A stretch of 64,000 nt of DNA from an uncultured Bacteroides sp. (GTDB taxonomy: Bacteria; Bacteroidota; Bacteroidia; Bacteroidales; Muribaculaceae): the NCBI GenBank assembly GCA_964391735.1, contig CAYMNF010000003.1, positions 2,798 to 66,797 of the forward strand. The letters are read 5' to 3'. A model generated the notes under the pieces. It was not told the DNA's origin. It did no database searches and worked only from the letters and a program-made list of their open reading frames with translations. The stretch's first letter is position 1. Each line of letters begins with the position of its first letter. The translations under genes were made by a program, and so were the position numbers. This document shows positions 9,573 through 63,808 of the stretch, one piece after another.

Positions 9573-11878
9573 CCGATTGCCAGGTGGAAAGCTAACGATT
9601 TGCCGAACGACGGCATGTTGTAATAGCCGTGTTTGTCGGTCTTATAGGGCGCATGGATGCCGATGCCAAGGTCGGCGCGCACAATCAGTATATCAAGGTC
9701 ATAACGCAGGCCCACGCCCGTTCCAAGGGCTAGGTCCTTGAAGAAGGTTGAGGCCTTCAGCTCACCCCCGGGGCGCTGAGGGTCCTTTTTCAGCAACCAT
9801 ATATTGCCGCAGTCAATGAAGGTAGCCCCGTGCAGGTCCCCGATAATGGGGAAGCGCAGCTCGGTGTTGACCTCAAATTTGAAGGTACCGGTCTGGTCAA
9901 AATATCCGTTGACAAGGTCCTTGGGCGGCCGATATGAACCGGGGCCCAATGAGCGCACGGTGAAGGCGCGTATCGAGTTGGCACCGCCGATGTAGAACTG
10001 CTCGCTGTACGGCACCTCGGTTGAGTTGCCGTAGGCATGGGCTGCCCCAACCAGCGCGCGTGACACCAACCACACATCCTTGCGCGTGAGTCGTTGCCCG
10101 TAAACTATCTGTGCCGTCCCTTTGACAAATTGTGAGAAGGGGGTGCCAAAAAGCTTCTTCTCGCCATGTTTGCCGCACAGCTGGTAAATGCTCCAGAAGA
10201 CGTTACCGGCCTGCTGCAGCGTCAGTTGGAAGTTGAAGGTGCGCCATTTGCGATACTTGCGGTCAAAGGTGTAGCTGTATAGCATCTGCGGGATATACTG
10301 GTCCCTGAAGGAGAGGGCAACCGCCGGGTTGGCCGCCATGATCGAGTCAAAATCATGGGTCGTCTTCAGCAGCTTGGTGTAGCTTATCTTGAAGGGGGTA
10401 AAGGAGTTGCTGACGTGTCGTGAGTATTGCCAGTCATATGACAATCCGGCATTGAATTGCGCTATCTTGAAGTAGTGCGGGCGGTTCATCAGCTCGGCAT
10501 TCAGCGTTATGCGTGTCCAGTTGAGGACGCGTCGGCGACGGGTAACCCAGTCGGGTGCAAGCAATCGGGGGAATGCCAGGGAGGTGGTGAGGCCAACCTC
10601 GTATGAGTTGAATTTACTCTTTTCATTGCCGTGTCCGGTTTGCCACTCATAGTCGCCATTGATTTTCACCGAGAACTGCTCCCCTCCACCAAATATGTTC
10701 TTGTTGGTAATGGTTGCGGCCAGTCCCGGCCCGAGATAGGAGTTGGACTTTGAGCTGGCATTGGCCTCAAGGGTCGCTTCAAGGGGCTTGTCAAAGGTGC
10801 AGTTGATGTATACGTCCAGGGTCGGCTCCTTGGCAAGCGTGTCAGGGATGGCGTTGATTTCAATGCCGTTGAAGATGCCTAAGCGTGACAGGTAGGTCTG
10901 CGTGTTATTCATCTGGCGCACCGAGAAGATGCGTCCCGTCCTAAAGGCTATACAGCTTGGTATCAACCCCTTGCGCAGGCGCGACGGCATTTGCTGTATT
11001 ATGGTACCGCGTTGGGTCTGCAGGGTGTCGGTCCACTCGGCCGTCAGGTCTGACCGGTAGATATTGGTAACGATTTTACCGGTTTTGAACTGTTGTAGCC
11101 CGAATTTGGGGGCGTTGTCGGCGATGTCAAGACGCAAGGCAATCTGCTCAGGCCGCATCAGCGAATCGGCCAGATAGGTCAGAAAATCAGGCTGGAAAAA
11201 GTAATACCCCTTGTTGCGCACAGCATTGGCTACGTTGACACGCACCTGTGCCAACGAGTCAAGGGCGTAACGTGAGCCGGCCTTCAGGTATGTGCTGCGG
11301 CTTGCTACCGAGTCTATCAGGTGATTGAGGTAGCAGGTATCGGGTAACAGCTGTACAGAGTCAATCATGTAGGGGCGCCCGGTGTTGACGCTGTACAATA
11401 TCTGGGCTTTCTTCTTGTTTTTGCCCTGCACCAGTTGGTAGGTGGCGGTCCCCTGGAAGTATCCGTTGTCCTGCAGTACCTGGTCAATCATTTTTGTCCG
11501 AATCTCAGGGCGCACATCGCTTATCAGTACCGGTTGTTGCACCAACAGGTTATATAGCCATTTCCCGATCTCCTTTTTCGGCTCATCCCAATGGTTCCAC
11601 ACCCACAACCCGATGGGGAAGGGGTAGCGGTAGTAGGGGGAGTACAGGCAGTTGTTGGGCTTGACATTGACAGCCGTTTTAACCTCAGAGGAGAGCCCCG
11701 GGGGCATCTTGACGCTGTCAGGCATCCTGATGTCTATCTTCTTAACCCCGGTGTACAGGATATCCCCCTCAGCCAGGCGTGAGGTGGTAGAGCATGAGTG
11801 CGTCAGCAGTGCGGCAACCGTCAGGAGCAGGGCGCTGACCAGCAGGGTGGGGTGGGAGGTGCGGTGTCTCGGCTTCAT
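9560..11878 (-). CDS. BamA/TamA family outer-membrane protein (Omp85 type)
   Basis: 772 aa with a signal peptide and a C-terminal beta-barrel ending in ...LAFHLAIGYPF. Its start overlaps the tamB stop by 4 nt. Confidence 0.8.
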   Translation of the reverse strand: MKPRHRTSHPTLLVSALLLTVAALLTHSCSTTSRLAEGDILYTGVKKIDIRMPDSVKMPPGLSSEVKTAVNVKPNNCLYSPYYRYPFPIGLWVWNHWDEPKKEIGKWLYNLLVQQPVLISDVRPEIRTKMIDQVLQDNGYFQGTATYQLVQGKNKKKAQILYSVNTGRPYMIDSVQLLPDTCYLNHLIDSVASRSTYLKAGSRYALDSLAQVRVNVANAVRNKGYYFFQPDFLTYLADSLMRPEQIALRLDIADNAPKFGLQQFKTGKIVTNIYRSDLTAEWTDTLQTQRGTIIQQMPSRLRKGLIPSCIAFRTGRIFSVRQMNNTQTYLSRLGIFNGIEINAIPDTLAKEPTLDVYINCTFDKPLEATLEANASSKSNSYLGPGLAATITNKNIFGGGEQFSVKINGDYEWQTGHGNEKSKFNSYEVGLTTSLAFPRLLAPDWVTRRRRVLNWTRITLNAELMNRPHYFKIAQFNAGLSYDWQYSRHVSNSFTPFKISYTKLLKTTHDFDSIMAANPAVALSFRDQYIPQMLYSYTFDRKYRKWRTFNFQLTLQQAGNVFWSIYQLCGKHGEKKLFGTPFSQFVKGTAQIVYGQRLTRKDVWLVSRALVGAAHAYGNSTEVPYSEQFYIGGANSIRAFTVRSLGPGSYRPPKDLVNGYFDQTGTFKFEVNTELRFPIIGDLHGATFIDCGNIWLLKKDPQRPGGELKASTFFKDLALGTGVGLRYDLDILIVRADLGIGIHAPYKTDKHGYYNMPSFGKSLAFHLAIGYPF

Positions 11879-19597: not shown

Positions 19598-19626
19598 AAT
19601 ACCCGTGCGTCCCTTCGTTCGGCCCT
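19598..19626. repeat. Degenerate copy of the GC-rich repeat module CGTGCGTCCC(T/A)(T/C)CGTTCGG
   Basis: AATACCCGTGCGTCCCTTCGTTCGGCCC resembles 63776..63808 and the 60380..60410 family. Confidence 0.5.
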
Positions 19627-19715: not shown

Positions 19716-19799
19716 GGTGCGCACGGGGGGACTCGAACCCCCACGCCCGAAAGCACCAGATCCTAAGTCTGGCGCGGCTACCAATTACGCCACGCGCGC
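19716..19799 (-). tRNA. tRNA-Leu (anticodon UAG), long variable arm
   Basis: Minus strand reads GCGCGCG-TG-GCG-TAATTGGTAGC-CGC-G-CCAGA-CTTAGGA-TCTGG-(variable arm)-GGGGG-TTCGAGT-CCCCC-CGTGCGC-A-CC. The cloverleaf was folded by hand; the acceptor stem has one G-U pair. Confidence 0.9.
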
Positions 19800-55043: not shown

Positions 55044-57158
55044 ATGGCAACCTTAGAGAAAATCAGGAGCAAATCAGTGCTTCTTCTCATTATCATCGCC
55101 TTGGCCCTGTTAGCCTTTATCTTGACTGACTTCTTCAACTCAAGTCGCACCATTTTCGGTACGGGCACAACCGTGGCCAAAGTTGACGGCGAGAAAATCA
55201 GCATCAACGAACTGTCGGCCTACACTGCCGAACACCAGCAGCAAAATCCTAACATTGACGGTGCCACTCAGCAGGCCATGGCTCTGCGCCAACTGGCTAC
55301 CGAGCGCTTGCTCGCCAAGGAGTATGAGCGCCTGGGCCTCACCGTCACCAACGAGGAGCTTACTCAGTGGATGCTGGGTTCAGGCTCGCCGGTGATGATG
55401 CAGAAAAATGCGCAGCTGTTCCAGCAGTTGGGCATGGATGCCAAGTCGCTGTATGATATGGTGATGAACCCCTCAAAGTATAACCTCTCACCCGAGCAGG
55501 CCGACGCCCTGCGCCGCCAGTGGAATCAGCTTGAGAAACAAGAGTCTGACTTCCTGCTGCAAACCAAGTTCGGCGTGATGATGGGTGTCTTCACCTCAAA
55601 CAACCTTGACCTCAAGAGGCTCTATAACGACAGCCGCACCCTCGCAAGCTTTGAGTACACTCGCTACCCCTACTCAAAGGAGGATGACAAAAACTATAAA
55701 GTCTGCGATGAGGAGATCAACAAATACTGGGATGAGCACAAGGAGGAGTACAAACTCCCCTACCACCAGAAGGGCCGCAGCGTCAGCGTTATCAACGTCA
55801 ACGTTACCCCCAGCCCCAAGGACCGCCAGAAGGCCACCGAGCTGATGGCTAAGGCTAATGAGGCGCTCAAGACGCAGGAGGGTACCTCAGGCGTGGACGC
55901 CATGGGCGACCTCGTGGTCTCAACTCTCTGGGTTACCTCAAACTCAGCTAAGAGCCAGCGCGTGCCCATGGAGATGCGCACTGCCCTGTCGATGCTCAGC
56001 GCCGACACCGCAGGCGTTAACGCTGTGGTGCAGCTCCCCCAGACCTCTCCCAATGTCTACACCCTGGCAAAACTGCTTGAGACTAAACCTGAGGTTGACT
56101 CAATCTCAATCACCTCAGGCCTGGTGCCCGCCGCTATGGCTACAACCCAGTGGCTCGACTCAATCAACGCCGCCAACGTAAACCTCGCTGCCCTCAAGGG
56201 TATGCAGGACGTTGAGGTTGACTCAATGTCATTGTCAATGATTGAGCTCGCCGGCCAACCTATCTATGACTCTGTCAACAACATGCCCGTTGGTCAGTTC
56301 CAGGTGCTCACCTTCCCCGGCCAACAGACCCCCGAGGGTTATAAACTGATTGCCCGCGTTGACCGCCGCTCAGCTCCCGTGACAGCTTACAACATTGCCA
56401 CCGTCACCTACACCCTCGAGCCCTCAAGCGCAACCCTCACCAAGGCTCAGAGCGATCTCGCACGCTACATCAACCAGAACAATACCGCCGAGCAGTTCAT
56501 CAACAATGCCTCAAAGGCCGGTTATGATGTCATGAACCTGATCCTCACCCCCAGCACTCCCTCACTCGGCAATATCCGCGATACCAAACAGGGCGTGGCT
56601 TGGGCATTCAAGCACAAGAAAGGTGAGGTTTCACCCCTCTTCACCGACGAGACCGAGACAAACTTCTATGCCGTGGCTATTGACGATGTATACAACAACG
56701 AATACATCCCCGCTACCAACGCCGAGCTGCGCAAGAACATCACCGAGATTCTCGTAAACAAGAAGAAAGGTGAGGCATTGGCCAAGCGCTTCAAGGGCAA
56801 AGCCCAGAACGTGCAGGGTTACGCCGAGGCTTTTGGCGGGGCTCCCGTCACCACCGGCCGCGCCGCCCTGTTGGTTCCCGTGCAGAACCCCATGACAGGC
56901 CAGGTTGAGAACGCCGTAACCATGGCAGCAGTCAACGGCAAGCCCGGCACCATCGCCGGCCCCATCGCCGGTCTCACCGACCTCTGGGTTATCCAGGTTA
57001 CCGGCAACGAGCAGAACCCCACACCCTACAACGCTCAGCAAATGGCCAACATCTACCAGCAGAGCGTAATCGGCCCGTCACTCTCAAACCCCTTTGACCT
57101 GCTCATCGGTAACAAAGAATTCAAAGACAACTCACTTGAGTTCACCAAGGATGAGTAA
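55044..57158 (+). CDS. Periplasmic chaperone / peptidyl-prolyl isomerase D-like protein
   Basis: 704 aa. N-terminus MATLEKIRSKSVLLLIIIALALLAFILTDFF matches the PpiD-type anchor. The body is SurA-like. Confidence 0.7.
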   Translation: MATLEKIRSKSVLLLIIIALALLAFILTDFFNSSRTIFGTGTTVAKVDGEKISINELSAYTAEHQQQNPNIDGATQQAMALRQLATERLLAKEYERLGLTVTNEELTQWMLGSGSPVMMQKNAQLFQQLGMDAKSLYDMVMNPSKYNLSPEQADALRRQWNQLEKQESDFLLQTKFGVMMGVFTSNNLDLKRLYNDSRTLASFEYTRYPYSKEDDKNYKVCDEEINKYWDEHKEEYKLPYHQKGRSVSVINVNVTPSPKDRQKATELMAKANEALKTQEGTSGVDAMGDLVVSTLWVTSNSAKSQRVPMEMRTALSMLSADTAGVNAVVQLPQTSPNVYTLAKLLETKPEVDSISITSGLVPAAMATTQWLDSINAANVNLAALKGMQDVEVDSMSLSMIELAGQPIYDSVNNMPVGQFQVLTFPGQQTPEGYKLIARVDRRSAPVTAYNIATVTYTLEPSSATLTKAQSDLARYINQNNTAEQFINNASKAGYDVMNLILTPSTPSLGNIRDTKQGVAWAFKHKKGEVSPLFTDETETNFYAVAIDDVYNNEYIPATNAELRKNITEILVNKKKGEALAKRFKGKAQNVQGYAEAFGGAPVTTGRAALLVPVQNPMTGQVENAVTMAAVNGKPGTIAGPIAGLTDLWVIQVTGNEQNPTPYNAQQMANIYQQSVIGPSLSNPFDLLIGNKEFKDNSLEFTKDE

Positions 57159-57680: not shown

Positions 57681-58145
57681 CAATTATTTACCCCCAATTG
57701 GATTACCGCGAACCTCGACAATCCCGTGGCGCATTTCGGCCCGTTCATGCGAAAAACGTGTATTATTCGACCAATAAATTGGTCGTAACGCATACGTTAA
57801 TGTTTTCCGTGGGTTTCACCCACGGCTACGATCTTGCACCACTACGTGGTGAACACCCGTGCGCTCAATCGGCCGACAATGCAACCGCGTAGCGGTTGAA
57901 TATCGTAGCCGTGGGTGAAACCCACGGAATGCGATAATTAAGGAAAACGACCAATTTATTGGTCGAATAATACCCGTATTCGTGTGTCCGCCGTCCGCCC
58001 CAGGAAAACGCTCTCAACCCTGGGATGAATTTCGGCCGTTCACGTGGGCGCCGCCGGTCGGGTATTATCCCCGGGGGGGGGATAAAATGATGTGAATCAA
58101 TTATTTACCCCGCAATTGGAGAGCCGTGTGTCCCTACGTTCGGGC
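57681..58145. repeat. Composite intergenic repeat block (modules M1-M5, see findings)
   Basis: It contains CAATTGGATTACCGCGAAC (57695..57713), a 218-bp nested palindrome (57758..57975) and GAGCCGTGTGTCCCTACGTTCGGG (58121..58144). All of these recur at 59.4, 60.1-60.65 and 63.6-63.8 kb. Confidence 0.85.
57758..57975. repeat. Long form of the type-A palindromic element (M1 ... M2-M4 > < M4-M2 ... M1rc)
   Basis: Outer arms are GTGTATTATTCGACCAATAAATTGGTCG (57758..57785) and CGACCAATTTATTGGTCGAATAATACCC (57948..57975). Inner inverted hairpins CCGTGGGTTTCACCCACGG (57807..57825) and CCGTGGGTGAAACCCACGG (57909..57927) flank an 83-bp core. Confidence 0.85.
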
Positions 58146-59216: not shown

Positions 59217-59449
59217 ACATCAGACTTTCGGTCCCACAAATATACAGAATTTTCCGCACCCCACCATTCCCCCCGCGTAAGAAAACCCCCGTCCCAAGGT
59301 TGGATGGCGATTCCCCCACACATTAATTTGATAAATACCGGTTTCCCAACGATGTGGAATATGTTGGATACCAAAGATTAACCATTCAATTGGTTTACCG
59401 CGAACGTAGGGACACGAGTATTATCCCGGGGTGGGTAAATTTTTGGAAG

Positions 59450-59992
59450 TCAATTTGTTACGGGATGCGGGGGTGTCGGGACATGGAAACGGTCGGTGGA
59501 CCAGCGGGCCGGGTTGGTTTGGATGTAGTCGGCGATGCGGTTGCCGTCGTGGGGGCCGCGGATTATGTGGTCATGGTAACGGCTCTGCCACCCGAATTCT
59601 ATGTTGTTTTGGCGGGCATACATGGTGATTTGGCGTTTTAATCCCCCGATTATTACTCCGAGTGACCCCCGTAATGATGATTTGTCGTTTGGGTTGATCG
59701 AAATGATTACATGGATATGGTTGGGCATCACGACAAACAGGGGTGCCTCGGCGTATGGATAGTGGCGTTTGACATCCTGTAGCTGCGATGCACAATATTG
59801 GCCGAGGGGTGAAAGGCGCATTTCACCGTTGACGATTCGCCCGAAGTAGCATTTTTTGCCAAGCGTACAAACAGTCACAAAATAATCCCCGGCAGAATAA
59901 TTGTGGAAAGTAGCCCGCGGAGATTTTCGTACCCGCAAATCCACAAATTTATCATATTCCCATTGGGGGTCCGTATTAGCAACGTCGTTCAT
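59450..59992 (-). CDS. REP-associated tyrosine transposase (RAYT / IS200-like Y1 HUH transposase)
   Basis: HUH motif in FVVMPNHIHVIISI. The C-terminal region reads WQSRYHDHIIRGPHDGNRIADYIQTNPARW, with the catalytic-Tyr context Y-I-x-x-N-P. ATG at 59990-59992 is chosen over the upstream GTG. No tnpB lies adjacent. Confidence 0.75.
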   Translation of the reverse strand: MNDVANTDPQWEYDKFVDLRVRKSPRATFHNYSAGDYFVTVCTLGKKCYFGRIVNGEMRLSPLGQYCASQLQDVKRHYPYAEAPLFVVMPNHIHVIISINPNDKSSLRGSLGVIIGGLKRQITMYARQNNIEFGWQSRYHDHIIRGPHDGNRIADYIQTNPARWSTDRFHVPTPPHPVTN

Positions 59993-60125
59993 GCCCAAAT
60001 GTACATCCACCCCCGGAAAAACAAAAGTTTTTGCCCCAAAAAAATCGTAAAAATTTGAAAAATTTTTTTGGGTGGTAAATTTTGCATTGAATCACGTATT
60101 CACCACCCCGTTCGCAGTTAAGAGC

Positions 60126-60241
60126 GGGTATTATTCGACCAATAAATTGGTCGCAACGCATAGGTTAATATTTTCCGTGGGTGAAACCCACGGAAAGCGC
60201 AAATAAAAGAAAACGACCAATTTATTGGTCGAACAATACCC
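60126..60241. repeat. Compact form of the type-A palindromic element (116 bp)
   Basis: GGGTATTATTCGACCAATAAATTGGTCG (60126..60153), a central TTTTCCGTGGGTGAAACCCACGGAAA (60171..60196), and CGACCAATTTATTGGTCGAACAATACCC (60214..60241). Confidence 0.9.
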
Positions 60242-60296
60242 GTAGTGTCGGCATTCGAATGTTTCGCGAAATGGACCGATACCCAGCGATTTACCC

Positions 60297-60447
60297 CACA
60301 ATAGGTTTACCGCGAACCTCGGCAAACCCGGGGTCGTTTTTGGCACGGTCGTACGGCACTGTCGGCATATTCGTCCGGCGGACGCACGAGCCGTGCGTCC
60401 CTACGTTCGGATATTATCCCGGGCGGGTAAAAAGTTGGGTGGCAATT
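60297..60447. repeat. Type-B repeat unit with a single REP hairpin
   Basis: CACAATAGGTTTACCGCGAAC ... GGACGCACGAGCCGTGCGTCCCTACGTTCGG (60380..60410) ... ATATTATCCCGGGCGGGTAAAAAGTTGGGTGGCAATTG. Confidence 0.8.
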
Positions 60448-60456
60448 GATTATGTC

Positions 60457-60650
60457 CAAATTGGTTTACCGCGAACGTAGGGACGCACGGCTCGTGCGTC
60501 CGTGGTCCGCCCAAGGAAACCGGTGGCAAACCCGGAGGCATTTTCGGACCGTTTGCACGGCCCCGTCGGCACATTCGACCGGCGGACGCACGAGCCGTGT
60601 CCCTACGTTCGGGTATTGTCCCGGGTTGGGAAAATAGTGGGTGGCAATTT
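60457..60650. repeat. Type-B repeat unit with an inverted REP doublet (REPIN-like)
   Basis: CAAATTGGTTTACCGCGAACGTAGGGACGCACGGCTCGTGCGTCC (to 60501), an 82-nt spacer, then GGACGCACGAGCCGTGTCCCTACGTTCGG (60584..60612) and GTATTGTCCCGGGTTGGGAAAATAGTGGGTGGCAATTT. Confidence 0.85.
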
Positions 60651-60660
60651 CGTGGGGGTG

Positions 60661-60698
60661 AAAACGGCGAGAGGCTGCGCGGGGTGCGCAGCCTCTCG
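60661..60698 (-). terminator. Rho-independent terminator of the T9SS CBM-repeat gene
   Basis: Perfect 13-bp stem CGAGAGGCTGCGC/GCGCAGCCTCTCG with a 5-nt loop, followed on the minus strand by CCGTTTTC. Confidence 0.7.
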
Positions 60699-60721: not shown

Positions 60722-63328
60722 TTAGAGAGCGATCTTGGTGGCTTTGTTGCCCTGAACGCGGATGTACATGTCGCCGGCTTTCGGCTCAAGGATGCGTACA
60801 CCCTGCAGGTTGAAGTAGTATACCTCACCGTTGTTGTCAGCCTCAATGCTGTCAATGCCGGCACCCTCACCGTGGACAATAACTGTTGCGTTACCGTCGG
60901 GGAGAAGGGTAAAGGTGAACTTCGGGTTAATCAGGCTTTGACCAAGTTCAAAGAAGTCAGATGCGCCATAGTTAGCGGTTGTTTCTACCTTATTATTGAT
61001 GGTTGTGGCATCCTCCGGAGCACCCCAGAAGTCGTTGAACACATCTTTATCACAGAAGAAGAAAATAGTACCCTTATTAACGGTTCCGGTATACTCATAG
61101 GTGTATACATCGCCGGTAACGTGGGTCATATCATAATCAACATAGTCGATACTGAGTACGAGGTTGCGCGGGGTAGCAATTGTGCCTTCAACTTTGATTT
61201 TGCTTGCGCCGGTGGCGTTGTAGGTGAAGGTTACGGTTGCGTTGGTCATGGCCTCGGGAACGAGGAAGTTTACTGATGAGCCGGCCCATGCGTTAGCCTC
61301 GGTGCCGTTCTCAAGGGTTGCGGTGGTTACGCTCGGGTCGTTAATGTCGCCTTCGCCGCCCCAGCTTGCATCCCAGCCGGTGCCGTCAATAATCTTGAAC
61401 TCGGTCTCAGCGGGCAGGCTTGCAAAGGTGTATGTCCAGGTGTTATCAGCGCCCTCGGTCATCTCGATGGGAGCATCGGCGTTCCAATCATTGAATGTGC
61501 CAACGAGGCTGAAGTGGTGTTCGGGATCGGGGGTGTCACCGGCCTCGCCATAGGTCTTGCCGTTCTCAAAGTCGTAGTTCGGTGTCTTGTTATCATCAGT
61601 ACCGTCGCTGAACAGGAGGTTGGTCGGCTCGAAGGGCAGGGTTGCTGAGTAGCTCCACATGTCGTCACCCTCGCTGCGTGCCTCAATCTTGGTCATCTCG
61701 GCACCGGGATATGCGCCGTTGTTTAGCTTGTCGTTTTTCCAGATGAATACATATACCTTCTCAAAGGCGGTTTTGCCGTTGTTGTAGGTGATGTTTACAT
61801 CGGTAGATACAGCAGCAGCGCCTACATAGGTCTTGCCATCCTCAAAGTCAAGGTTGTCGGTCTGTAGGCCGTTGTCACCGTTGTTGAAGATTACGAACTC
61901 GGGATCAAAGGGCAGTTCGGCAGTGTAGCTCCAAACGTCGTTGTCACCTTTGGTCATCTCAACACCGGGCCAAGCAGCGTTGCTGGGGCTGCCGTTGCCT
62001 TTCCACATGTAAGCGTATACGGTCTCGTATTGTGAGGCTGAGTTGTCAAAGTATACGGTGATTGAGTTGGGCTGTGCAGCCTCGCCGTACTGTTTGCCGT
62101 TCTCAAATACCTCATCACCGCCCTGTTGGCCGTTGCCGTCGTTGAAGATAACGCCCGCAGGTTCAAAAGTCAACGCGCCGGTATATGTCCAGATGTTGTC
62201 TTCACCTTTAGTCATGGCAACCCCGGGCCAGCTATTGTGTTGGGTATCGTTGAAGAAGTAGACGTAAACGGTCTCGTAGTTGGTAACAGAGTTGTTGTAT
62301 GAAACGCTGTACTCTTGGACAAGGTAGTCGTATTGTTTGCCGTTCTCAAACTCGAGGTCCTCGGTCTGGGCGCCTTTGTTGTTATTATTGAAGATAACCA
62401 TTGCCGGGTCAAACGGCAGGCTTGCTTCGTAAGTCCACACGTCGCCTGCGCCCTTAGTCATAGCAACACCGGGCCAATTTGCATTTTTGCTATCACCATT
62501 CCAAACATAGGCATATACCTCTTCCCATTTAGTGGAAGCATTGTTGAATGAAACAGATACGTCAAAAGTAATCTCTTGGCCGGACTTGAAGGGGTTCTCG
62601 GCGTTCTTGTCGTTGCTGAAGAATACCTGAGCATTATCGTTTGCTTTAGCTTTCAAGTAAGCAACGCCGTTCCAAGTGGTAGCAAGGGTACAATCACTAC
62701 TTTGTGAATCATTAACAAGTCCAGTTATTTTGTCCATGGAAATGTTTTTAGCACTTCCCAAGTTGTATTCAAAGTAATCGTTATCAGCGATTTTAAATCC
62801 TTGCCCGGCATTTATACTTTGTCCGGCAGCGCAAGTAAATTTGAAGATGCCATAACCATTTTCTTCTTCAAGCAACTCCCATTTCCAGGCATTTGTCGCA
62901 CCCCAGCTATTCATGTCTCCGCGTAAATATATCTCAGCCGGGCCGGTGGGTTGAGGAGTATCAGATGTTGAAGTGATGACGAGTTGTGTTAACTCCGGAT
63001 TAACGGTGAGAGTATACTCACCCTTAGCGGGTACTTTATTGTTGTCATTTCGTTTGGTAAGGCTAATGGTTTTACCCAATTGGTCTTTTGAAATTGTTCC
63101 ACAACCCATGCAAGCACCATTAAAAGTACTCCAATTGCCTTTAGCTTTTGATAACTTAAACTCAGTAAGGTTTTTAATCGTTATGGTATAGCTGCCGTTG
63201 GAAAGGGTCATCTCTGCAGGACTTTCAGGTGTCCAGCCCAGACCATCTCCGGCACCACACACATAAATTTGTGCGTTTGCAGCAAGCCCGACAAGGGTAG
63301 CTACAATTAAGGAGAAAAATTTCCTCAT
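60722..63328 (-). CDS. T9SS-sorted, non-catalytic multi-CBM (starch-binding-like) surface/secreted protein
   Basis: 868 aa: signal peptide, then two SusE/F-like modules (IYVCGAGDGLGW..., IYLRGDMNSWGATNAWKW). Four tandem repeats of about 85 aa follow, with VYAY(V/M)W...WPGV(A/E)MTK...W(T/S)Y...PF(D/E)P..VIFN.G...QT(E/D)(D/N)L.FE(N/D)GK.Y. Next comes an LVGTFNDW module and the CTD EVYYFNLQGVRILEPKAGDMYIRVQGNKATKIAL. Confidence 0.75.
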   Translation of the reverse strand: MRKFFSLIVATLVGLAANAQIYVCGAGDGLGWTPESPAEMTLSNGSYTITIKNLTEFKLSKAKGNWSTFNGACMGCGTISKDQLGKTISLTKRNDNNKVPAKGEYTLTVNPELTQLVITSTSDTPQPTGPAEIYLRGDMNSWGATNAWKWELLEEENGYGIFKFTCAAGQSINAGQGFKIADNDYFEYNLGSAKNISMDKITGLVNDSQSSDCTLATTWNGVAYLKAKANDNAQVFFSNDKNAENPFKSGQEITFDVSVSFNNASTKWEEVYAYVWNGDSKNANWPGVAMTKGAGDVWTYEASLPFDPAMVIFNNNNKGAQTEDLEFENGKQYDYLVQEYSVSYNNSVTNYETVYVYFFNDTQHNSWPGVAMTKGEDNIWTYTGALTFEPAGVIFNDGNGQQGGDEVFENGKQYGEAAQPNSITVYFDNSASQYETVYAYMWKGNGSPSNAAWPGVEMTKGDNDVWSYTAELPFDPEFVIFNNGDNGLQTDNLDFEDGKTYVGAAAVSTDVNITYNNGKTAFEKVYVFIWKNDKLNNGAYPGAEMTKIEARSEGDDMWSYSATLPFEPTNLLFSDGTDDNKTPNYDFENGKTYGEAGDTPDPEHHFSLVGTFNDWNADAPIEMTEGADNTWTYTFASLPAETEFKIIDGTGWDASWGGEGDINDPSVTTATLENGTEANAWAGSSVNFLVPEAMTNATVTFTYNATGASKIKVEGTIATPRNLVLSIDYVDYDMTHVTGDVYTYEYTGTVNKGTIFFFCDKDVFNDFWGAPEDATTINNKVETTANYGASDFFELGQSLINPKFTFTLLPDGNATVIVHGEGAGIDSIEADNNGEVYYFNLQGVRILEPKAGDMYIRVQGNKATKIAL

Positions 63329-63448: not shown

Positions 63449-63629
63449 CAATTAATGAGCCAATAATCACAAAATTAGGCACCCGCGGTTATTTACTTAA
63501 CAAATTTTAACGAAACGCGGGTCCCCGAATCGGGAGAACGTCGGCAAAACGCCCCGTTCGCGGGAGCCGAGCGCCCGCCCGTTCCCGCGTCAACGCGGGG
63601 GGAGATTCGGCACGGTCGCGTTGAAGGGC

Positions 63630-63734
63630 GGGTATTGTTCGACCAATAAATTGGTCGCAGGCAGAGACAAAAATTTTCCGTGGGTTTCACCCACGGCTAC
63701 GATATTCAACCGCTACGCGGTTGCAATGTCGGCC
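63630..63734. repeat. Half copy of the type-A element (M1-M2-M4)
   Basis: GGGTATTGTTCGACCAATAAATTGGTCG (63630..63657), TTTTCCGTGGGTTTCACCCACGG (63674..63696), and CTACGATATTCAACCGCTACGCGGTTGCAATGTCGGCC (63697..63734). The last is 37/38 identical to the reverse complement of 57871..57908. Confidence 0.85.
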
Positions 63735-63775
63735 GCGTAATGCGCTGGAAATCAGTGGTTTTGTATGGCAAATGA

Positions 63776-63808
63776 CAATACCCGTGCGTCCCACGTTCGG
63801 GTATTGTC
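63776..63808. repeat. Hairpin repeat GACAATACCC-GTGCGTCCCACGTTC-GGGTATTGTC
   Basis: A perfect 10-bp inverted repeat encloses the CGTGCGTCCC..CGTTCGG module shared with 60391..60410 and 19601..19622. Confidence 0.75.

Follow-up and report, generated by a model that had tools for sequence, protein, structure and literature searches.

The 64-kb stretch of DNA analysed here (the window) harbors one RAYT locus, a TnpA-REP-like HUH/Y1 gene on the minus strand at 59450..59992, which encodes 180 aa when read from its ATG. An alternative GTG start at 60010 would give a protein of 186 aa; the ATG is preferred because homologs begin with MND. The HUH motif (N91-H92-I93-H94 within MPNHIHVI), W135-Q136 and the catalytic Y156 (DYIQTNP) are all intact, and both the HUH motif and the C-terminal block (WQSRYHDHIIR...ADYIQTNPARW) are present as described in an earlier note on this DNA. 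The HuH-Y spacing amounts to ~62 aa, and an internal REP is absent from the gene. Its neighbors encode a GT4 glycosyltransferase and a CBM26 protein, with TnpB absent there. No record was retrieved when the RAYT (in the 180-aa and the 186-aa version) and RnpA were looked up as exact proteins.

Profile searches bear out the RAYT assignment that had been proposed for this ORF, in that a REP model is favored over an IS200 model. REP_Tyr_transpos (NF047646) is the sole meaningful NCBIfam match with 60 bits and an E-value of 2e-16, below the curated cutoff of 80, and Pfam Y1_Tnp scores 16.8 bits, below its GA of 23, whereas the NCBIfam IS200 model (NF033573) reaches 12 bits. Likewise, 12 of 12 members of the homolog family match only NF047646 in NCBIfam. 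E. coli TnpA-REP (4ER8) is the sole match in a sequence search of the PDB. The same structure is the top match in Foldseek when an AF2 model of the RAYT protein (pLDDT 85) is used as a query, with an rmsd of 3.5 Å over 139 columns and 23% identity. TnpA of IS608, ISDra2 and IS200 rank behind it (13-17% identity, rmsd 6-14 Å), and all 30 matches at E<=1e-3 are Y1 transposases. Both the sequence profile and the modeled fold support a placement of the RAYT protein nearer to TnpA-REP than to IS200 TnpA.

Repeat families around the RAYT gene

First, we focus on the repeat termed REP-1, which consists of GTAG followed by GGACGCACG-GCT-CGTGCGTCC and thus provides a 9-bp stem, a 3-nt loop and a 5' GTAG foot. 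CGAAC is conserved 5' of this foot in the REP-1 copies of the window. Seven copies are present in the window (two perfect, one with a deletion, two truncated and two degenerate), and the REP-1 21-mer found no match in 100 shuffles. The perfect copies are located at 60472..60501 on the plus strand (CGAAC-GTAG-GGACGCACG-GCT-CGTGCGTCC, the left arm of REPIN unit C) and at 60380..60409 on the minus strand (GGACGCACGAGCCGTGCGTCC and CTACGTTCG, the right arm of unit B). They are exact reverse complements of each other, with 31-nt arms that are 100% complementary. The copy at 60584..60611 on the minus strand has a 2-nt deletion in the stem and forms the right arm of unit C, separated from the left arm by an 82-nt spacer. 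A half copy (GAGCCGTGTGTCCCTACGTTCGG) at 58121..58143 on the minus strand lies 18 nt from the stop of the glycosyltransferase gene, and a truncated copy (CGAACGTAGGGAC) at 59401-59413 is part of unit A. More distant are a degenerate remnant (TACCCGTGCGTCCCTTCGTTCGG) at 19600..19622 on the minus strand, 95 nt from a tRNA gene (19718-19799), and a degenerate right arm at ~63780-63802 within the third copy of the element called family Y below.

The earlier note had already listed the perfect hairpin, its inverted counterpart, the copy with the 2-nt deletion and the copy near 58121, each no more than 1-2 nt off the coordinates given here. It had overlooked the GTAG foot on every copy, the second repeat family (REP-2) and the degenerate copies at 19600-19622 and ~63780-63802. 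With respect to the RAYT gene, REP-1 is placed 36 nt 3' and 388-619 nt 5', and REP-2 and family Y are placed 133-250 nt 5'. Perfect REP copies occur in the 64-kb window only between 57.8 and 63.7 kb, at most ~2.5 kb (REP-1) or 6 kb (REP-2) from the RAYT gene. REP copies are missing from six further intergenic gaps of >=100 nt in the window, and an Rfam scan of the repeat region revealed no RNA family, the tRNA at 19718-19799 being the only match. The mostly damaged state of the local REP-1 copies fits low or past activity.

REP-1 copies are embedded in composite units. Unit B (60299..60447, plus strand) has the order CAATAGGTTTACCGCGAAC, REP-1, ATATTATCCCGGG and GGTGGCAATT; the left REP is absent and CTC is found instead. 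Its tandem neighbor at ~203-nt spacing, unit C (60458..60649, plus strand), is a full REPIN with extended arms. A REPIN, as Bertels and Rainey are said to have described it in 2011, is formed by two inverted REPs with a short spacer and can fold into a long hairpin. This architecture had been claimed for the inverted doublet at 60472/60584, and the claim holds up: the doublet has its GTAG feet outward, which is the dominant arrangement in relatives, and single-stranded DNA covering 60472-60612 is predicted to fold with -51 kcal/mol (z = -6.5). Of unit D, the left part (CAATTGGATTACCGCGAAC-CTC...) at 57695..57756 on the plus strand is interrupted by a family-Y element. Unit A (59387..59446, plus strand) is collapsed to a left end, CGAAC-GTAG-GGAC and the right end GTATTATCCCGGG, and it shows no stable fold (z = +0.6). 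A degenerate copy had been described as abutting the RAYT stop, which is correct for this 60-nt unit (3 nt from the stop) but not for the REP remnant inside it, which ends 36 nt away. Reading unit A as the footprint of a clean excision would require at least two deletions, so we rejected this and call the unit only a degenerate remnant. As for the conserved unit ends proposed earlier, CAATTGGTTTACCGCGAAC stands with four occurrences at <=1 mismatch, all on the plus strand, versus 0.01 expected. In contrast, GTATTATCCCGGG alone is not significant (four found versus 1.0 expected; 4 of 100 shuffles reach four).

The second GTAG hairpin family, REP-2 (GTAG-CCGTGGGT-GAA-ACCCACGG), is found at 57807, 57905 and 63678, with an untagged copy at 60175. 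An inverted REP-2 doublet with its feet inward and 46-nt arms (57805..57929; predicted fold of -48.5 kcal/mol, z = -10.2) is nested in copy 1 of family Y, a palindromic element at 57757..57980 with the arms TATTATTCGACCAATAAATTGGTCG and CGACCAATTTATTGGTCGAATAATA. Copy 2 of family Y (118 nt, 60125..60242) is located 133 nt upstream of the RAYT start, harbors one REP-2 hairpin without a tag at 60175-60193 and is predicted to fold with -40 kcal/mol (z = -12.5). Copy 3 (63629..63802) combines REP-2 at 63678-63700 on the minus strand with the degenerate REP-1 right arm. Among the REPIN folds, z ranges from -6.5 to -12.6. Composite-unit ends and family Y were sought in 243 other loci, and none was found there; hence, these flanks may either be lineage-specific or be absent through the sampling of the 243 loci. 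A Logan contig of the same organism, found via PpiD, breaks off inside a REP-2 hairpin.

REP hairpins in related gut bacteria

A metagenome scan for the REP hairpin returned at least 120 contigs; the 120 analysed (922 kb) contain 231 hairpins, and only one of these contigs carries a RAYT. On these contigs, GTAG is found on exactly one side in 217 of the 231 hairpins (94%), and the loop is strand-asymmetric, with GCT in 102 cases versus AGC in 4. Only 19% of the hairpins are located inside ORFs of at least 150 aa, though such ORFs cover 84% of the bases (p = 3e-104). Among 63 close opposite-strand pairs in relatives, 55 have GTAG outward versus 8 with the reverse arrangement (p = 1e-9). The spacers of these inverted doublets are mostly 23-75 nt, and the 82 nt of the window doublet are thus longer than usual. 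The intergenic restriction and doublet arrangement anticipated for the repeats are therefore present in the metagenome contigs of relatives. REP-1 is dispersed, intergenic and mostly arranged in inverted doublets in related gut bacteria, which is the behavior of a REP/REPIN. Search strings for repeats of this locus are GTAGGGACGCACGNNNCGTGCGTCC and GTAGCCGTGGGTNNNACCCACGG; the 15-nt pattern CGAACGTAGGGACRC is unspecific in genome contigs, where it is swamped by chance or unrelated GTAGGGAC matches from many phyla.

The hairpin is also constantly associated with homologs of the gene. REP-1 is located inside the gene or at most 130 nt away at 6 of 6 homolog loci (7 of 7 RAYT genes when the window is included), and one of these loci (L123) contains a compensatory stem variant of REP-1. 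Moreover, 39 of the 120 closest homologs encode REP-derived peptides of the type T[HR][GE][SPA]C[VIA], which follow the HuH strand in 36 of the 39. A comparison of the strain pairs L244/L245, L246/L247 and L120/L121 for REP presence or absence detected no REP indels.

A probable REPtron and its proposed mechanism

As far as the sequence allows us to judge, the locus is very probably a REPtron, in which one chromosomal RAYT gene, encoding a putative HUH/Y1 endonuclease-ligase for single-stranded DNA, is surrounded by REPIN doublets and the REP hairpins that belong to it; the genome is that of a deep, Muribaculaceae-like member of the Bacteroidales. Dispersal of the repeats in the genome of this organism is unproven because perfect copies in the visible 64 kb are found only near the RAYT gene and the distal ones are degenerate. 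A mechanism may be proposed by analogy to E. coli TnpA-REP, the underlying work being reportedly that of Ton-Hoang and of Messing in 2012. In transiently single-stranded DNA, a REP would fold into its 9-bp stem and 3-nt loop, and the RAYT protein would bind the stem and read the unpaired 5' GTAG foot. The HUH histidines would hold a metal ion, and Y156 would cut and rejoin single-stranded DNA beside the REP. REP/REPIN units might thereby be excised, copied or moved, with the RAYT gene staying single-copy. We infer catalysis by the RAYT, its present-day activity and the range of repeats that it might handle (REP-1, REP-2, family Y) from this analogy. As a single-stranded REP sequence, CGAACGTAGGGACGCACGGCTCGTGCGTCC is a candidate substrate.

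It is conceivable, though unlikely, that the locus is a fossil REPtron, in which the gene has been retained, possibly because it serves the host in some other way, while mobilisation has ceased in this lineage and the REPs around it are decaying relics. Of the seven REP-1 copies in the window, only two are intact; unit A is collapsed and unfolded, unit B is without its left REP, the distal copies are degenerate, and the other 57 kb contain none that is perfect. Furthermore, the near-invariant Cys168 of the family is Arg in the window RAYT. However, the catalytic motifs are intact, and the protein deviates at 4 of 64 family-conserved sites, which is within the range of the family. The identity of the two perfect REP-1 copies over 31 nt argues for recent copying or conversion. 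In a sister species (L250), the ppiD-rnpA-GT4 synteny is kept but the RAYT gene, the REPs and the 520-bp mosaic are missing, so that the mosaic as a whole is not ancient. Moreover, systems of Bertels Group 4 are low-copy anyway, with ~14 occurrences of flanking 16-mers per replicon (PMC5581495). A REPtron as outlined above remains our preferred reading.

Genomic context and mobility

In the protein collection, the 90% cluster of the RAYT contains a single member, from a single contig. The genomic context differs at each of the six homolog loci that were compared, suggesting that the RAYT gene itself moves on evolutionary time scales. An improbable but wider-reaching reading holds that the Bacteroidales RAYT clade comprises host-recruited single-stranded DNA nucleases that act together with restriction/defence loci, the in-gene REPs serving as self-recognition or regulatory sites; in a milder variant, one RAYT would serve the unrelated hairpin families REP-1 and REP-2 via their common foot. 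We regard it as very unlikely that the main role of the protein is that of an accessory single-stranded DNA nuclease of restriction/defence loci, with REPs as by-products or self-regulatory sites. Two of the six homolog contexts (L120, L244) do lie between hsdS and hsdR, in different type I R-M operons, and the homolog L122 is located 2 nt upstream of a GmrSD/HNH gene. Yet this is a sample of six contexts, the window gene and three other homologs reside in housekeeping or carbohydrate contexts, and PADLOC assigned no defence-family match to the RAYT protein or to three homologs. Since REPs insert into variable regions generally, co-location with defence islands may be passive.

Returning to the REPtron, its single gene has to be set apart from an autonomous IS200/IS605-type IS, whose ends would be the hairpins and whose gene would copy itself. 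The fold is common to TnpA of IS200, IS608 and ISDra2, each homolog locus is in another context and the sister species is without the gene at this site. Even so, we give this explanation very little credence. As the earlier note rightly pointed out, there is neither a tnpB partner nor are there IS200/IS605 ends; the gene occurs once in the window and in its protein cluster, and the IS200 model scores 12 bits versus 60 for the REP model. Hairpins without the gene are ~120-fold commoner than hairpins with it. Their orientation varies, they flank the gene on either side, and some are even part of the reading frame of homologous genes. Furthermore, plasmids and phages hardly ever carry the family (5 of 72,556 plasmid records, all of them non-mobilizable, and one phage record), and a search of IMG/VR for RAYT relatives gave 0 matches. 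REPs have secondary roles as terminators or mRNA stabilisers, and the hairpins are intergenic near gene ends (e.g., 58121 at 18 nt from a stop), but the notion that they are such host regulatory structures with the HUH gene close by incidentally is the least credible of all, given the one-sided GTAG foot in 94% of the copies, the strand-asymmetric loop, the lack of a T-run after the hairpin, the different sequence of the terminator-like CBM26 hairpin (60668-60698), the presence of REP-1 in or beside 7 of 7 RAYT genes and the lack of an Rfam family match.

The feature is real and represents a new example of a Bacteroidetes RAYT subclass, not a new kind. With this locus, the known hosts of the RAYT/REP system come to include a deep gut lineage that is Muribaculaceae-like and uncultured. 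The REP hairpin T-GTAG-GGACGCACG-GYY-CGTGCGTCC is common to many gut Bacteroidales, and their RAYTs are only 50-65% identical. For annotation, this is of use in two respects: such genes are labelled merely 'transposase', and REPs interrupt assemblies from short reads and give rise to spurious ORFs as well as N-terminal extensions. Studies of REPIN populations beyond the Proteobacteria may profit too. The picture of RAYT biology is unchanged, given that publications from 2017-2018 already contain the subclass, its type of REP and the REP inserts in frame.

Comparison with known RAYT classes

The locus had been considered worth describing on the premise that REPIN-RAYT systems are characterised mainly in Proteobacteria. 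This premise fails, as RAYT subclasses 2.4 and 2.6 have already been reported from Bacteroidetes, where they are abundant or dominant (PMC6006769; Bertels Groups 4 and 5, PMC5581495). Subclass 2.6 (Bertels Group 5) resembles the window RAYT in phylum, length (179 aa) and motifs (NH[LIV]H and WQ). We rejected this assignment: in subclass 2.6, 21 aa are inserted between alphaC and beta4 (HuH-Y ~82 aa), and the structures are atypical, weak and without GT[AG]G, as opposed to ~62 aa and canonical GTAG hairpins here. With TnpA of IS200/IS605 elements (IS608, ISDra2, IS200), the RAYT shares the HUH/Y1 fold and, putatively, the recognition of subterminal single-stranded DNA hairpins. Those elements are multi-copy with a defined end on either side, and tnpB is often part of them; the window gene, by contrast, appears to be single-copy and is without tnpB, and in related gut bacteria the hairpins are dispersed without the gene.

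The best match in sequence and fold is the E. coli K-12 REPtron (tnpA-REP/yafM, 4ER8; BIMEs/REPINs), which belongs to subclass 2.2 and Group 2. In both systems, an HUH/Y1 gene, apparently single-copy here as well, lies between clusters of GTAG-REPs in alternating orientation. As in the E. coli BIMEs, the REPs form a mosaic with further conserved linker motifs, and more than one REP subfamily is present at the locus. Differences lie in the protein (23% identity; NHIH versus DHLH and WQ versus WE) and in the REPs, which are 25 nt long with perfect stems here and ~35 nt long in E. coli; the density of REPs appears to be much lower here.

Judged by published motifs and REP type, not by the HMMs of the authors, the window RAYT belongs with subclass 2.4 (Quentin, 2018; PMC6006769), which equals Group 4 of Bertels (2017; PMC5581495) and is reported to be abundant in Cyanobacteria and Bacteroidetes (PMC6006769). 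NHIH and WQ match the subclass motifs (NH[IFV]H and WQ) exactly, and YIQTNP is close but not identical to the Y motif YIxNNP (family consensus YIENNV). The length of 180 aa is within the ~160-230 aa of the subclass (mean 194). In-frame REP inserts between HuH and Y, as known from subclass 2.4, are present in close homologs and absent from the window gene. The HuH-Y spacing of ~62 aa, compared to a median of 88 aa, is shorter because the window gene is without a REP insert. The host, an uncultured Muribaculaceae-like lineage, is outside the 2017-18 genome sets of subclass 2.4, and the extra CGAAC 5' of GTAG in the REP of this genome is a further difference. REPs of subclass 2.4 are 23-25 nt long and consist of GTAG, a GG(A/G)C-stem and a 3-5-nt loop (GTAGGGAC-type). 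Table S1 of PMC6006769 contains subclass 2.4 REPs that are near-identical to the window REP, e.g., A. suis GTAGGGACGCACTGCGTGCGTCC compared to GTAGGGACGCACGGCTCGTGCGTCC here. Low copy number and chromosomal location are likewise shared with subclass 2.4.

The RAYT gene and its protein

The region 59387-60650 reads as the earlier note described it. The RAYT ORF (59450..59992, minus strand) encodes 180 aa counted from the ATG, which was chosen as the start because homologs begin MND...; counted from the GTG at 60010, further upstream, the protein would be six residues longer. Both motifs claimed for it are present, the HUH motif MPNHIHVI (H92 and H94) and the C-terminal WQSRYHDHIIR/ADYIQTNPARW block, and alignment to E. 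coli TnpA-REP places the catalytic tyrosine at Y156. Differences from the family affect 4 of 64 highly conserved positions, none of them catalytic, which is within the family range. The proposed comparison with Pfam Y1_Tnp yields a match, but a weak one (16.8 bits, under GA 23). The NCBIfam model REP_Tyr_transpos reaches 60 bits (E 2e-16, cutoff 80) and the IS200 model 12 bits, and the REP model is the sole match in 12/12 aligned family members. The only PDB sequence match, by single sequence and by family profile, is 4ER8, the complex of E. coli TnpA-REP with a REP hairpin. This structure is also the best Foldseek match (rmsd 3.5 Å over 139 columns, 23% identity) of an AlphaFold2 model that used 50 homologs (mean pLDDT 85), followed by IS608, ISDra2 and IS200 TnpA at 13-17% identity and larger rmsd.

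As had been expected of a single gene, there is one locus in the window and the 90% cluster has one member on one contig. It has no tnpB partner either; the adjoining genes encode a glycosyltransferase of family GT4 and a protein with four CBM26 starch-binding modules. The gene of the latter (60722-63328, minus strand, 868 aa) has internal repeats of ~260 nt, and its terminator-like hairpin at 60668-60698 differs from the REPs. Plasmids and phage records contain hardly any members of the RAYT family (five large non-mobilizable replicons and one record, respectively), and IMG/VR holds no relatives.

REP-1 and its composite units

The REP-1 unit reads CGAAC-GTAG-GGACGCACG-GCT-CGTGCGTCC. In every copy an unpaired GTAG, a REP hallmark, stands directly 5' of the stem and is itself preceded by CGAAC, which the earlier note had missed. 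The perfect hairpin and inverted copy that it reported correspond to the 21-nt palindrome GGACGCACGAGCCGTGCGTCC at 60380 and, inverted, at 60481, where none is expected by chance; complementarity between these copies extends over 31 nt. The damaged copies were likewise recovered, one with a 2-nt deletion (60584-60611), a half copy (58121-58143) and a truncated copy (59401-59413). Degenerate remnants lie at 19600-19622 (95 nt from tRNA gene 19718-19799, minus strand) and at ~63780. Within the 64-kb window, perfect hairpin copies are restricted to 57.8-63.7 kb, and six other intergenic gaps contain no repeat copies.

As for the proposed unit motifs, the recurrence of CAATTGGTTTACCGCGAAC is significant (four matches at ≤1 mismatch, all on the plus strand, versus 0.01 expected), whereas the occurrence of GTATTATCCCGGG taken alone is not significant in the window. 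Composite units B (60299-60447) and C (60458-60649) stand in tandem, and the left REP of C has no counterpart in B. Reading the inverted doublet 60472/60584 as a REPIN agrees with its orientation, which is the dominant one in relatives, although its spacer of 82 nt is longer. As single-stranded DNA, the REPIN-like units and the palindromic family Y fold with z -6.5 to -12.6 versus shuffles; the collapsed unit next to the stop codon of the RAYT gene gives no fold (ssDNA, z = +0.6 versus shuffles).

A second REP family and family Y

A second GTAG-tagged family, REP-2 (GTAG-CCGTGGGT-GAA-ACCCACGG), had also escaped the sequence-only description, and its stem is unrelated to that of REP-1. Perfect hairpins with a GT[AG]G foot, scanned for across the whole window, belong to the REP-1 and REP-2 families only. 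GTAG-tagged REP-2 copies lie at 57807-57829 (minus), 57905-57927 (plus) and 63678-63700 (minus), and an untagged copy without a foot at 60175-60193. The pair at 57805-57929 is an inverted doublet with its feet inward, and the footless copy is as expected from central deletion of such a doublet. REP-2 has no match in any of 243 other loci examined. It lies at the centre of family Y, a 118-nt palindromic element at 60125-60242 with further copies at 57757-57980 and ~63629-63785. The family Y arms (29 nt) carry the hairpin CGACCAAT-AA-ATTGGTCG, and CGGGTATT is found both in family Y and at the right end of REP-1 units. Either the window RAYT or a further RAYT at another place in the genome may serve REP-2 and family Y.

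REP-1 in related gut bacteria

In 6/6 homologous genes fetched with flanks, a REP-1 hairpin lies inside the gene or ≤130 nt away, one of the six loci having a stem variant with compensatory changes, GGATGCACC...GGTGCATCC. Scanning metagenomes for GTAGGGACGCACGNNNCGTGCGTCC recovered at least 120 contigs (922 kb) from gut samples of humans and rodents, and a RAYT homolog is found on only 1 of 120 REP-bearing contigs among the matches listed. The gene thus always occurs with the hairpin and the hairpin mostly without the gene, which is a REP/REPIN signature. On the 120 contigs listed, relaxed matching counted 231 hairpins; GTAG stands on exactly one side in 217 of them and is preceded by T in 82%. 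On the same contigs 19% of hairpins fall wholly within ORFs ≥150 aa, versus 84% of the DNA so covered (p = 3e-104), close opposite-strand pairs have GTAG outward in 55 versus 8 cases with spacers of mostly 23-75 nt, and the loop is strand-asymmetric (GCT 102 versus AGC 4). The evidence from relatives that the hairpin behaves as a REP is strong. It supports the interpretation as a RAYT with REP/REPIN repeats, the evidence for dispersal being that from related gut bacteria.

CGAAC-preceded GTAG-GGAC...GTCC hairpins also occur in MAGs of very different phyla (loci L017, L032, L037, L065, L075, L087, L091, L105 and L115), with Stenotrophomonas, Chthonomonadaceae, Anaerolineae, Oscillospiraceae and others as hosts. 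Hence, the GTAGGGAC-type REP start is widespread. A Bacteroidia MAG (JAUIKF010000001.1; L054 7853-7900) has a perfect 'double-foot' palindrome, CGAACGTAGGGACACGACATGTCGTGTCCCTACGTTCG, which starts CGAAC-GTAG-GGAC as does REP-1 of the window.

Host lineage and sister species

The closest relatives of PpiD (55044-57158), four in number, are 80-82% identical, after which identity drops to ~40%; named matches at that level are nearly all Muribaculaceae, Paramuribaculum and Amulumruptor, a few being labelled with unrelated taxa. By these relatives the Bacteroidales host was rightly called, and the identity pattern indicates a deep, poorly sampled lineage. A Logan short-read contig of the same organism (L249, 99.9% identical) ends at window position 57818, in the REP-2 hairpin loop: REP-type repeats fragment assemblies. 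In a sister species (L250 1-10154, Logan SRR28895728) ppiD-rnpA-GT4 is kept, with rnpA and GT4 overlapping, and is followed instead by a protein of 1498 aa that matches no Pfam family and by a HinfI-type R-M gene. Neither RAYT nor REP-1, REP-2 or unit motifs were found in the entire 10 kb of this contig, and thus RAYT and the whole mosaic are a lineage-specific gain or loss.

Putative activity and homolog contexts

The biochemistry of E. coli TnpA-REP was reportedly worked out by Ton-Hoang and by Messing in 2012. By analogy with this protein (4ER8), the REP would fold on single-stranded DNA, the RAYT protein would recognise stem and GTAG foot, and Y156 would cut and rejoin beside the REP, whereby REP/REPIN units would be moved or copied. 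Catalysis and present activity of the RAYT may be expected on the same analogy. Damage to most of the local REP copies makes a 'fossil' state of the system a reasonable minority reading. Two things speak against a great age, namely the pair of perfect 31-nt copies and the lack of the mosaic in the sister species.

In two of the six homolog contexts, hsdS and hsdR flank the RAYT gene, in a type I R-M operon that differs between the two (L120 8661-13728; L244 3190-9888), as do the HsdR tails (EcoR124_C versus EcoEI_R_C), and in one it lies 2 nt upstream of a GmrSD/HNH gene (L122 521-2312). PADLOC returned no defence-family match for the window protein or for three homologs. Among the observations, these contexts alone hold real promise of novelty, for the clade and not for the window, and six loci do not suffice for a judgement.

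Comparison with known RAYT subclasses

TnpA-Y1 proteins have been split into subclasses, among which subclass 2.4 equals Group 4 of Bertels et al. (PMC5581495) and is described by the motifs NH[IFV]H, WQ and YIxNNP, a mean length of 194 aa and GTAG REPs that are either canonical or of 'double foot' type (Quentin et al., 2018; PMC6006769). Its REPs include GTAGGGACGCACTGCGTGCGTCC of Actinobacillus suis (Table S1, PMC6006769), which is almost the same as the window's REP-1. Judged by published motifs and REP type, the window system thus appears to be a member of this already described subclass, and hence the novelty expected of a Bacteroidales instance is not borne out. The 'Bacteroidetes' subclass 2.6 was rejected, because its HuH-Y spacing is longer and its structures lack GT[AG]G.

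In-frame REPs in the gene between HuH and Y are unique to subclass 2.4 (PMC6006769). REP-coded peptides occur in 39 of the 120 closest homologs, some with a whole REPIN in frame; in the alignment of close homologs the peptides read VGTHGSCV at the N-terminus and RTHEPCVPT in the loop that follows the HUH strand. In-frame hairpins lie at 551-575 and 918-942 in the L122 homolog, at 10013-10036 and 10414-10437 in L123, and at 10013-10106 and 10380-10404 in L120. In contrast to these close homologs, the window gene is free of such inserts; its HuH-Y spacing is the shortest in the aligned set. Group 4 flanking 16-mers have only ~14 genome-wide occurrences (Bertels et al., PMC5581495), and the sparse REP density in the window is therefore unsurprising for this group.
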